Position numbers and translations under genes: made by a program
Notes under the pieces: model-generated
The model's input: the letters and a program-made list of their open reading frames with translations, nothing else
Databases searched by the model: none
What the model was told of the DNA's origin: nothing
Assembly: GCA_964596395.1 (NCBI GenBank)
Contig: CAZQSY010000006.1
Span: 153-64,152 of the forward strand
Reading direction: 5' to 3'
Length of the DNA: 64,000 bases
DNA from: an uncultured Candidatus Saccharibacteria bacterium
Lineage (GTDB): Bacteria; Patescibacteriota; Minisyncoccia; Phycocordibacterales; UBA9973
In this document: positions 4,957-58,125 of the stretch, piece after piece
Layout: each line of letters opens with the position of its first letter
Position numbering within the stretch: the stretch's first letter is position 1

Positions 4957-4987
4957 AAAATCTTCCAGCAAAAATAAATTTCTATAA

Positions 4988-5060
4988 CGCACGGATATTT
5001 TTCTGCTGAAAAATTCCTCGTGCTCGCGTCGCCGCGCTCGCAAGGCGTTCTAGAAATTAT
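4988..5060 (-). repeat. degenerate copy (A) of a ~125-nt structured intergenic element family
   Basis: CACGGATATTTTTCTGCTGAAAAATTCCTCGTGCTCGCGTCGCCGCGCTCGCAAGGCG aligns with the copies at 30274-30396 and (reverse orientation) 57356-57480. Confidence 0.5.
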
Positions 5061-5252
5061 TTTCGCTTGCAGATTAAAGTTATCCACAGTTTTGTCTTGA
5101 AAAGTATTGTGCTTGCGTTTGATATGCGGGATAATTATTAGTAGAGCAATAATTATCAAAAATATTTTTCAATAAATTTTTTTAGAAAGAAAATATTTTC
5201 GGGTCGTATTATTGCAAACTAAAAATTAGAAGTTTAATTGCAAAAAACTAAA

Positions 5253-5312
5253 ATGGCAGCTAAAAAGAAGAAAGCTAAGAAGGCAGCAAAAAAGGGAAAG
5301 AAGCGAGCATAG
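5253..5312 (+). CDS. 19-codon poly-lysine micro-ORF (MAAKKKKAKKAAKKGKKRA)
   Basis: ATG..TAG followed immediately by a strong terminator; coding status uncertain. Confidence 0.2.
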   Translation: MAAKKKKAKKAAKKGKKRA

Positions 5313-5330
5313 TTTCTTTTTCCCACTTCT

Positions 5331-5370
5331 AAAAAATCCTCCCCCCCAAAAAAGGAGGATTTTTTAGTTT
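5331..5370 (+). terminator. Rho-independent terminator
   Basis: ATCCTCC-cccccaaaaaa-GGAGGAT hairpin then TTTTT. Confidence 0.65.
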
Positions 5371-5376
5371 TGTTTC

Positions 5377-5462
5377 GGCGAGGCCGGCAAGGTTTGCTCG
5401 GGTCCTCGGGTCGGCCTTTCAGGCCTCAACCAGACCAGCTCGCAGACCTTGCCGGCCTCGCC
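5377..5462 (+). promoter_or_regulatory. long GC-rich stem-loop (17-bp perfect stem) in the secA leader
   Basis: GGCGAGGCCGGCAAGGT ... ACCTTGCCGGCCTCGCC enclosing 52 nt; ends 8-30 nt before the secA start. Confidence 0.55.
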
Positions 5463-5491
5463 TTGATTGAATGTATGCTAATATAAATAGT

Positions 5492-15170: not shown

Positions 15171-15304
15171 AAAAAGGCCAGAAAAAAGTTTTTAAGGGGT
15201 TTGGCGAGCCCTGCCTGCCGGCAGGCAGGGACGGCGAGCCAATTTCAGGAATTTTTAAGCTTCAAAAATTCCGTACCGACAAAAACTTTGTTTCTGGCCT
15301 TTTT
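15171..15304. repeat. 134-bp element of nested palindromes with ~24-bp terminal inverted repeats (MITE-like / bidirectional terminator) between convergent genes
   Basis: AAAAAGGCCAGAAAAAAGTTTTT ... AAAAACTTTGTTTCTGGCCTTTTT; inner perfect palindromes CTGCCTGCCGGCAGGCAG and GGAATTTTTaagcttcAAAAATTCC; flanking GGCGAGCC direct repeat. Confidence 0.5.
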
Positions 15305-30273: not shown

Positions 30274-30396
30274 AAATCACGAAACCCTTTCTTGGCGTAC
30301 TTTTTGATAGACACGAAAATTTTCTGCTGAAAATTTTCTCTGTCCGGCGCCGCCGCGCCTCCCAAGGTCTCTCAAAAAGTACGCCCGCGACGGGTT
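30274..30396 (-). ncRNA. copy B of a ~125-nt conserved structured intergenic element, between the infB stop and the rbfA start
   Basis: On the transcribed minus strand aligns base-by-base with copy C at 57356-57480 (about 85% identity) with compensatory changes in the outer stem (CGAAACCC/GGGTTTCG vs TCTGAAACTC/GAGTTTCAGA). Confidence 0.45.
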
Positions 30397-30406
30397 TCGA
30401 GGTAGG

Positions 30407-56913: not shown

Positions 56914-57354
56914 ATGGACAAAAAAACAGCAAAACCTGTTCGCCGAGAAGGCGGAGAGAAATATACCGAAGCCACAGGCAGAAGAAAGACCGCGACCGCC
57001 CGAGTACGCCTTTTTGAAGCGGCCAAATCGAGTTTCTCGGTGAACGGTAAGGACATAAAGGAATATTTCAAGACCGAAGAAGAAAGGCGGCTGGTAGAAG
57101 GTCCGCTTACAAAAGGAGTGGAAAAGAAATTTGATTTTAAATGGAAAATCGAAGCGAGGGTTTCGGGTGGCGGGCATCACGCGCAGGCCGAGGCCGTGCG
57201 CCACGGTATCGCTCGGGCGTTGGTTTTACACGATGGGGAATTGCGTTCGGGTTTGAAGTCCCTGGGATATCTGAAACGCGACCCGCGCGCCAAAGAGCGT
57301 CGCAAGTTCGGCCTAAAGAAAGCCCGCAAAGCTCCGCAGTGGTCTAAGAGATAG
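56914..57354 (+). CDS. rpsI: 30S ribosomal protein S9
   Basis: [15 protein letters not shown]...[19 protein letters not shown]...[26 protein letters not shown]. Confidence 0.9.
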
Positions 57355-57355
57355 T

Positions 57356-57480
57356 TCTGAAACTCTTCGCAGGTGTACTTTTTAGAAGGCCTTGGGAGGA
57401 GCGACGGCGACGGACAGAGAAAATTTTTAGCAAAAAATTTTCGTGCCTGATAAAAAGTATGCCAAGAGTAGAGTTTCAGA
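57356..57480 (+). ncRNA. copy C of the ~125-nt conserved structured intergenic element (rpsI 3' side), followed by an intrinsic terminator
   Basis: Outer 12-bp stem TTCTGAAACTCT/AGAGTTTCAGAA encloses conserved GTACTTTTT..CCTTGGGAGG..GACGGACAGAGAAAATTTTT..AAAATTTTCGTG..AAAAAGTA.GCCAAGA core shared with copy B. Confidence 0.45.
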
Positions 57481-57487
57481 ACACTGA

Positions 57488-57514
57488 CCTCCTTGAAGAA
57501 AGGAGGTTTTTTGT
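57488..57514 (+). terminator. Rho-independent terminator
   Basis: CCTCCTTgaagaaAGGAGG plus TTTTTTG. Confidence 0.7.
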
Positions 57515-57528
57515 GTTAGTATAAAAAC

Positions 57529-58125
57529 ATGTCAGATGAAAAAGAAGAATCAAAAAAAGAAGAAAAGACCCCCGAGGAATCGGAGGTTCTTGAGTTTGAA
57601 TTTAACGAAGACGGGGAGGAAGATTTAAAAAAGACAATCAAGAAACTCCGCGCCGAACTAAAAACCGCCAAGGCAGAACGAGACGAATACCTTACCGGCT
57701 GGCAGAAAGAGCGGGCCGATTTTGCCAATTACAAAAGAGAGGAGGAGAACCGCAAGGCAAGTTTTTCCGAATCGGTTCGGGAGCGCATTTTGACGAAATT
57801 TTTGGCGGTGCTGGATAGTTTCAGCATGGCTTTCGCCAACAAAGACGCTTGGGAGAAAGTTGACGAGGGCTGGCGCAAGGGGGTTGAATATATCCATTCA
57901 CAGTTTCAGAATGTTTTTGAAGAATACGGAGTAAAAGAAATCGGGGAAATTGGAGAAAGTTTCGACGCCAACATTCACCATTCGGTAGGCGGTACCCCGA
58001 CCGAAGAAAAAGAGAAAGACCACAAGGTCGCCCTGGTCGTCCAAAAAGGATACAAGCTGGGCGAACGCGTGCTGCGCCCGGCCAAGGTGAACGTCTACGA
58101 ATATGTCGAAAACGGAGGAGAATAG
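57529..58125 (+). CDS. grpE: nucleotide exchange factor GrpE
   Basis: Coiled-coil N-terminus, GWQKERADFANYKRE (GrpE signature-like), C-terminal beta-domain. Confidence 0.85.
   Translation: MSDEKEESKKEEKTPEESEVLEFEFNEDGEEDLKKTIKKLRAELKTAKAERDEYLTGWQKERADFANYKREEENRKASFSESVRERILTKFLAVLDSFSMAFANKDAWEKVDEGWRKGVEYIHSQFQNVFEEYGVKEIGEIGESFDANIHHSVGGTPTEEKEKDHKVALVVQKGYKLGERVLRPAKVNVYEYVENGGE

Follow-up and report, generated by a model that had tools for sequence, protein, structure and literature searches.

What kind of element occupies the spacer between rpsI and grpE in this genome? In the window, meaning the whole 64,000-nt stretch of DNA analysed here, the two genes are separated by a hairpin of about 125 nt, in which the original prediction saw a new structured RNA, either an sRNA or a 3'-UTR element tied to translation genes, with a structured MITE as its fallback. 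The locus is laid out as follows:

56914 to 57354, + strand: rpsI (ribosomal protein S9), 5' neighbour of copy C (Pfam Ribosomal_S9, E 1e-37)
57354 to 57482, + strand: copy C, the whole hairpin, subtype T1 (MFE folds; match to covariance model R1)
57356 to 57365, + strand: 5' arm of the outer stem, UCUGAAACUC, pairing with 57471-57480
57390 to 57445, + strand: 56-nt core, CCUUGGGAGG...CGUG (pattern match; family alignment A2)
57398 to 57411, + strand: core hairpin A, G+C-rich (family pairs 31-35/42-46)
57419 to 57442, + strand: core hairpin B, an A+U-rich 10-bp stem with an AGCA loop (family pairs 55-64/69-79)
57471 to 57480, + strand: 3' arm of the outer stem, GAGUUUCAGA, partner of 57356-57365
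57486 to 57514, + strand: intrinsic terminator of the rpsI transcript, distinct from copy C (terminator scan)
57529 to 58125, + strand: grpE, 3' neighbour of copy C (Pfam GrpE, E 1e-37)

Copy C starts on the final base of the rpsI stop codon and folds with an MFE of -47.4 kcal/mol (z -6.4; 0 of 200 shuffles equally stable); covariance model R1 matches it at 57368-57467 with 77.9 bits. Its core is a three-way junction bearing two hairpins, whose helices are those originally drawn, GUACUUUUU/AAAAAGUAC and GAAAAUUUU-AGCA-AAAAUUUUC, hairpin A carrying a tandem G.A/A.G at positions that form Watson-Crick pairs in other copies. No U run follows the stem and copy C itself does not qualify as an intrinsic terminator; the terminator that had been placed 3' of it is recovered by the terminator scan as a hairpin at 57486-57508 followed by a T run. 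Further downstream lies TGTGTTAGTAT, a motif kept in relatives: TGTGYTAAYAT stands 7-12 nt upstream of the grpE ATG in the window (57509-57531) and in most relatives, and is probably grpE's own promoter. Because this probable promoter comes after copy C, the element lies in the rpsI 3' UTR. The motif resembles an extended -10 promoter, which would give grpE a very short leader or none.

The window holds four copies in 64 kb, belonging to three subtypes. Those other than copy C are:

4968 to 5067, - strand: copy A, subtype T2 (the commonest), core 4990-5045 (covariance model 90.1 bits; fold)
about 15171 to 15304, + strand: copy D, a divergent subtype (covariance model 21.9 bits, E 1e-3; sequence and ORFs)
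30274 to 30402, - strand: copy B, subtype T1, in the infB-rbfA spacer, core 30312-30367 (covariance model 87.8 bits)

The resemblance between B and C, put at about 85% by the original prediction, amounts to 82.4% identity over 119 nt (blastn E 5e-29), and their outer stems, UCUGAAACUC/GAGUUUCAGA in C and CGAAACCC/GGGUUUCG in B, do differ by compensatory changes as described. Both run with local transcription, rpsI and grpE being on the + strand and infB and rbfA on the - strand (Pfam verifies all four neighbours, as Ribosomal_S9, GrpE, IF-2 and RBFA). Copy B sits within its operon, 10-20 nt upstream of the rbfA start, and is the more stable of the two by MFE (-61.7 kcal/mol, z -8.0; 0 of 200 shuffles as stable). 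The third, inverted copy that had been reported is present, but calling it degenerate was wrong: copy A has the best covariance-model score of all window copies and represents the commoner subtype. It is flanked by a tRNA terminator and the secA upstream region. Copy D lies between convergent genes, for a glucosaminidase-like protein and an S1-domain protein, and its stem is terminator-like, bordered by an A tract and a T tract; the same subtype occurs 3' of rpsI in three other loci (L135, L147 and L157).

The neighbourhood of copy A has features of its own. Between it and secA, positions 5254-5366 hold a 19-codon lysine-rich ORF, MAAKKKKAKKAAKKGKKRA, and after it a clean terminator (5332-5366); the ORF could be the gene of a tiny basic protein. 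Directly upstream of the secA start codon (5471) is a palindrome of about 90 nt and 68% G+C (5375-5464) with a perfect 16-bp outer stem, GGCGAGGCCGGCAAGG...CCTTGCCGGCCTCGCC; it has no Rfam match and its sequence is unrelated to the family of copies A to D. Positions 1-81 of the window are the 3' end of a 16S rRNA, with a tRNA cluster about 2 kb downstream (2012-2400); Rfam finds no 23S rRNA in the window, so the rRNA genes appear to be unlinked.

Across the family, the hairpins measure about 100-180 nt, each with a stem of 20-60 bp that is capped by the core of about 56 nt. The core combines a G+C hairpin (GACG or GACUG loop) and an A+U hairpin (AGCA loop) with conserved single-stranded bases between them; it is near-constant, its two principal forms being T1 (CCUUGGGAGG-hairpin-GGACAGAGAAAAUUUUCAGCAGAAAAUUUUCGUG) and T2 (CCUUGCGAG-hairpin-GAGCACGAGGAAUUUUUCAGCAGAAAAAUAUCCGUG), and T1 copies often having the tandem G.A/A.G in place of two Watson-Crick pairs of the G+C hairpin. 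In alignment A2, which covers the core and 22 nt on either side in 116 copies, 91.2% of cells are paired in the three-helix structure, as against 35-53% once the partners are shifted 1-3 columns out of register, and the covariation score is 0.659 against 0.12-0.20 in these controls. Double changes occur in 29 of the 34 pairs, including all five of the G+C hairpin (family pairs 31-35/42-46) and seven of the ten of the A+U hairpin (family pairs 55-64/69-79), where 99.7% of cells are paired. The element is thus a conserved, structured, multi-copy one with real covariation, as had been proposed, and its further copies keep the structure. Nor does it match an Rfam family: at gathering thresholds Rfam 15 finds only tRNAs and the 16S 3' end in the entire window, E-value scans over copies C, A and D return chance-level matches only (the best 26.6 bits against a threshold of 60), and hammerhead, twister, twister-sister, pistol, hatchet, HDV-like and group I/II models have no match at E<=10 over copy C. 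By our own reading, the junction strands CUUGSGA / GAGCACGA / GUG do not fit a hammerhead core; hammerhead, SRP-like and tRNA-like readings of the core were all set aside, given the sequence and the absence of Rfam matches.

How far the family extends was read from a pattern of the bases common to copies A, B and C (CCTTGSGA-N12-24-GAGRAA-N6-AGCA-N9-10-CGTG), for which the chance expectation in the window is 0 matches. Scanned against one genome per GTDB species, it matched at least 117 stretches, at least 113 of them in Patescibacteria or in MAGs of unclassified bacteria, and since the pattern fixes parts of the core, core conservation in these 113 or more copies is partly circular; four of the 117 matches listed are unrelated chance matches outside that group. 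Record titles that carry a CPR lineage name Nomura-, Zambryski-, Taylor-, Wildermuth- and Giovannonibacteria, Minisyncoccia and Paceibacterota; many TPA assemblies bear the title Saccharibacteria. Some MAGs have 3-6 loci among the matches listed. More divergent cores exist (copy D, L070_3790, L012_6671), and covariance model R1 recovered all aligned copies together with 26 more inside the same 8-kb loci, with up to three copies per 8 kb, including tandem and head-to-head pairs. In such pairs the elements can lie 8-30 nt apart, either in tandem (L029 2967-3176) or head-to-head (L045 2572-2790, L012 6671-6897). No viral contig in IMG/VR matched the family pattern, so that nothing points to a phage vector, and a literature search on palindromic elements, MITEs and structured RNAs of Patescibacteria, Parcubacteria and CPR found no description. 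The family is large, apparently undescribed, and specific to Paceibacteria (Patescibacteria/CPR).

We consider that this family is probably selfish mobile DNA, of an RPE- or MITE-like kind, in which the folded single strand is the propagated unit; the structured MITE that the original prediction kept as a fallback is close to this reading. We infer mobility from presence and absence at orthologous sites rather than from a mechanism, and the rpsI-grpE spacer is one such site. The synteny of the two genes is kept in 80 metagenomic relatives, and an element lies just 3' of rpsI in five of the 80 loci, inverted relative to copy C in all five; the nearest S9 relatives of these five loci (80-88% identity) are without it. 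Filled and empty sites are compared across distances at which the best S9 relative is 72-76% identical in protein sequence. The spacer of L129 is empty and only 24 nt long, those of L126, L138 and L170 contain a plain, long, A+T-rich palindromic terminator, and those of L135, L147 and L157 contain a D-type element with A- and T-tract flanks as the sole terminator-like hairpin before the grpE promoter; in all of these spacers TGTGYTAAYAT stands upstream of the grpE start codon.

Other arrangements are seen 3' of rpsI. In L131 (1045-1093) the element is truncated by the contig end, which fits repeats breaking metagenome assemblies. In L119, L128 and L152 the first ~100 nt after the rpsI stop contain another conserved block, TAAYTGCTTARCG...TTTCGTGCAAGAGAAAATTTCCGGTGCGAGC...GAGCCGGAAATAGCGGGA, internally complementary and not of copy C's family, which may be a different structured element. 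About 100 nt after rpsI, L121 carries a palindrome with arms of similar style, ACAAAATATACTTTCT...AGAAAGCATATTTTGT, around an unrelated centre; this suggests that other core families ride on similar stems.

The D-type spacers are one argument for a different view, that the family is a host-beneficial, REP- or SPRITE-like hairpin of general utility (a terminator, an RNase III site or a 3'-end stabiliser), kept for supplying such functions in regulator-poor genomes, its mobility being secondary. Window copy D between its convergent genes would suit this, as would the many intergenic copies that begin a few bases after a stop codon, in short spacers, and the fact that the native terminators of relatives are long A+T-rich perfect palindromes (L138). 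However, copy C has its own canonical terminator downstream, copy B lies inside an operon just before the rbfA start, a terminator role is impossible for copies inside genes, and a terminator or stabiliser needs no conserved 56-nt three-way-junction core. As an account of the whole family we judge it unlikely, while some copies have probably been recruited as terminators. For copy C, a dedicated regulatory role at rpsI that goes beyond that of a very stable hairpin is unlikely.

Less probable still, and in our estimation improbable, is the reading first proposed for this locus, a dedicated structured ncRNA, acting as an sRNA or in cis as a 3'-UTR or intercistronic element, that would regulate translation-related operons. 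The strong structural covariation, the conservation of unpaired core nucleotides, the tolerance of G.U over A.C on one strand and the orientation of B and C along their operons all speak for it, and without an Rfam match such an RNA would be new. The wider family does not behave accordingly. In co-directional spacers (gene calls being simple longest-ORF calls) 18 copies are sense and 15 antisense, with 11 more between convergent and 10 between divergent genes, so that orientation relative to the neighbours is unbiased; the intergenic neighbours are complete and functionally unrelated (FtsZ/TrxB, DnaJ, XerC/Xth, ScpA/ScpB, FtsX/FtsE, L31); some 17% of copies lie in-frame in ORFs, in both orientations; the rpsI-grpE element is usually absent from relatives and inverted where present; and there are multiple subtypes and several copies per genome. 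The closeness of B and C to translation genes is thus incidental, given the mixed orientation, the diverse neighbours, the genic copies and the variable rpsI-grpE spacer, and the proposed tie to translation genes is not supported. The strand bias itself points elsewhere. Arm mismatches on the core's sense strand are G.U in 224 cases and A.C in 90, and the bias holds in every context class, even where the core is antisense to the host gene (genic antisense, 36 vs 6; antisense in co-directional spacers, 28 vs 10). It therefore tracks the core strand and not host transcription, and the relevant fold is that of one core-defined strand; the folded form would be either an ssDNA intermediate or an RNA whose synthesis does not depend on the host gene.

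Of the 116 copies, 20 lie inside genes, spanned by reading frames that continue for 100 aa or more to either side, nine in the sense and eleven in the antisense orientation, and all 20 are in-frame and stop-free, which implies, at the level of predicted reading frames, that the inserts are translated. In alignments they appear as insertions of about 27-60 aa, with clean gaps against orthologues, and the predicted insert-spanning peptides include TLGRSDGDGQRKFSAENFRG, TLGRSDGDGQRK, FSAENFR and CTDIFLLENSSCSAQSASQG. Ten hosts are identified by Pfam (UvrD, SecA, TsaD, DnaE, Dus, KsgA, Fmt, UvrC, an Aminotran_5 enzyme and UvrB), and RecG, RNase HII, ComEC and methyltransferase hosts were named by reading the sequence. 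The UvrD_C, SecA_DEAD, TsaD, Dus and Aminotran_5 matches each come in two stretches, of which the best stops before the core or begins after it. A tblastn search against all fetched DNA found insertion-free orthologues in eleven families (UvrD, DnaE, TsaD, KsgA, RecG, NifS, RnhB, Dus, the methyltransferase, SecA and Fmt), and the window's own SecA and NifS-like genes are without insert. NifS carries the element at a single site in both orientations (L080, L114), TsaD has one at a site common to L019 and L097 but in different reading frames, and the sites in Fmt and UvrC differ between genomes. Eight insert peptides compared with NCBIfam and Pfam at E<=1 gave no match except one chance hit, and a profile of the antisense-frame insert peptide run against 5.8 billion proteins gave four candidates and three short ORFs, the word index evidently missing the hosts.

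That the element would be an RNA-level intervening sequence, its long stem juxtaposing the insertion boundaries so that it is excised or bypassed by the ribosome and the host proteins are made without insert, would fit the way genic structure is kept at the expense of the encoded peptide (L036 vs L052), but is very improbable: excision would lift the constraint on the frame and disrupted-looking genes should then exceed open ones several-fold, when in fact all 20 genic copies are open, none of 14 candidate co-directional spacers holds a gene split by an out-of-frame copy (all 14 separate complete, different genes), which amounts to a translational constraint that argues against excision, and no Rfam ribozyme or intron matches.

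Returning to selfish mobile DNA, the ends and arms of the element hint at how it could be copied. The arms differ nearly fully between loci yet are always complementary over 20-60 bp. The CAZFHL MAG has five copies of two core subtypes with common ends, AAAAGTYGTYG...GAGAAAGACTTTT, and even the few locus-specific bases outside these ends are complementary; in JBAVTE and CAILDB near-identical inner parts are enclosed by different, perfect outer stems of 19-23 bp. Element ends differ between genomes and sometimes within one (JBAVTE). Inspection of the within-genome alignments by reading revealed no direct repeats at the element ends; the flanks are complementary instead, as inverted copies. Neither a transposase nor a terminal inverted repeat conserved across the whole family was found; the covariance-model matches are all full-length elements, and none flanks an ORF.

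Two genic copies show what an outer arm can be made of. The 3' outer arm of the RecG copy (L115), GGUUCCGGAAAGCUC, is read as GSGKL, which lines up with AGEL in the orthologue that has no insertion, and the 5' arm repeats this 3' arm as a reverse complement. The TsaD copy (L019) is built alike: TLEIFP, from the conserved ..LE.I.FPRPM motif, is encoded by its 3' arm, whose reverse complement forms the 5' arm. In both genes the empty orthologue conserves the host coding sequence that makes up the one arm. Since one arm thus holds host codons, the stem can in part be an inverted copy of the host flank. Arms also co-vary in genic copies that have been inherited vertically (L001/L078, L036/L052). 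Inverted flank copies and compensatory evolution of genic copies together suggest hairpin-templated copying, by template switching, as the process that may keep the arms perfect and extend them into flanking DNA. The idea that the outer arms are always pre-existing terminator stems with the element inserted in the loop was discarded, the arms of genic copies being equally long.

Under this hypothesis, propagation or selection would act on the folded sense strand of the core, as RNA or ssDNA; the conserved core would presumably be recognised by a trans-acting factor; hairpin-templated copying would perfect the arms and sometimes extend them into host flanks; and certain copies, such as D, would have been co-opted as terminators. 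Class-wide core conservation and arm co-variation are unlike decaying junk and point to continuing selection or conversion, which leaves room for a cellular function. In a bolder version, the core may serve a so far undescribed way of copying as its recognition or catalytic module; this mechanism would operate on a folded single strand of fixed polarity (RNA or ssDNA) and integrate through fold-back, hairpin-primed synthesis. We regard this as speculative and would not bet on it; if true, fold-back copying would leave inverted and not direct target duplications, and a non-coding element would be colonising essential CPR genes in-frame. In a weaker form, the sense-strand RNA may serve the cell in its own right and not depend on host transcription.

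The closest known parallel is found in Rickettsia, where RPE-1 to RPE-10 are palindromes of about 100-150 bp that lie in spacers and in-frame in unrelated housekeeping ORFs (Ogata et al. 2000, as summarised in PMC10969869). The likeness is extensive: both are dispersed palindromic repeats in small genomes of host-dependent bacteria, with intergenic copies and in-frame copies in housekeeping ORFs (here 20 of 116 are genic), several subfamilies per genome and no associated transposase. There are key differences as well: (i), the two show no sequence relationship, as judged by comparing insert peptides with NCBIfam and Pfam (NCBIfam includes RPE domain models); (ii), the Paceibacteria element is predicted to be translated in either orientation and in four or more frames, whereas each RPE family encodes one conserved peptide; (iii), it is the apical three-way-junction core that is conserved, whereas the arms vary greatly in sequence and yet stay complementary; (iv), the element spans a whole CPR class and RPEs one genus; and (v), its outer arms can be inverted copies of the host flank.

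With MITEs and similar repeats (Correia/NEMIS, ERIC, RUP, BOX, SPRITE) the element shares its size, its non-coding nature, an inverted-repeat build and a presence in transcribed spacers. Some of these repeats act as terminators (SPRITE) or as RNase III substrates (Correia; see also PMC10969869). What defines a MITE is a set of conserved terminal inverted repeats, direct target-site duplications and usually a cognate IS; the Paceibacteria element differs in having variable termini, a centrally placed conserved part and no direct duplication that could be seen. In REP/BIME elements, which are mobilised by RAYT (IS200/IS605-like) transposases, and in integron attC sites, the functional form is a folded single strand of one polarity, and there too structure is conserved over sequence and G.T is tolerated in the stem; REPs, however, are 20-40 nt long with a conserved 5' tetranucleotide, and attC sites are located in cassette arrays and conserved at their ends, not at their centre. 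The Ripley model of quasipalindrome template-switch mutagenesis describes a replication error mechanism and not an element. It explains the perfected and extended arms and the inverted host codons of RecG and TsaD, and possibly the flipping of the core at one site (NifS, the rpsI spacer), but leaves the conservation of the core, the element's spread to new sites and the G.U bias of one strand unaccounted for.

The genomes of CPR/Patescibacteria count as extremely streamlined, and selfish palindromes nonetheless thrive in them, even within UvrD, SecA, DnaE, TsaD and RecG, in convergence with Rickettsia, likewise reduced and host-dependent. In practice, the elements inflate protein lengths, apparently split Pfam matches at the insertion and probably break assemblies, and they could be mistaken for novel sRNAs or for lineage-specific protein inserts; the covariance model is a ready marker of Paceibacteria. 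The combination of a conserved core, complementary arms, a G.U bias and inverted flanks makes the family a tractable system for studying how palindromic elements, including RPEs, move.
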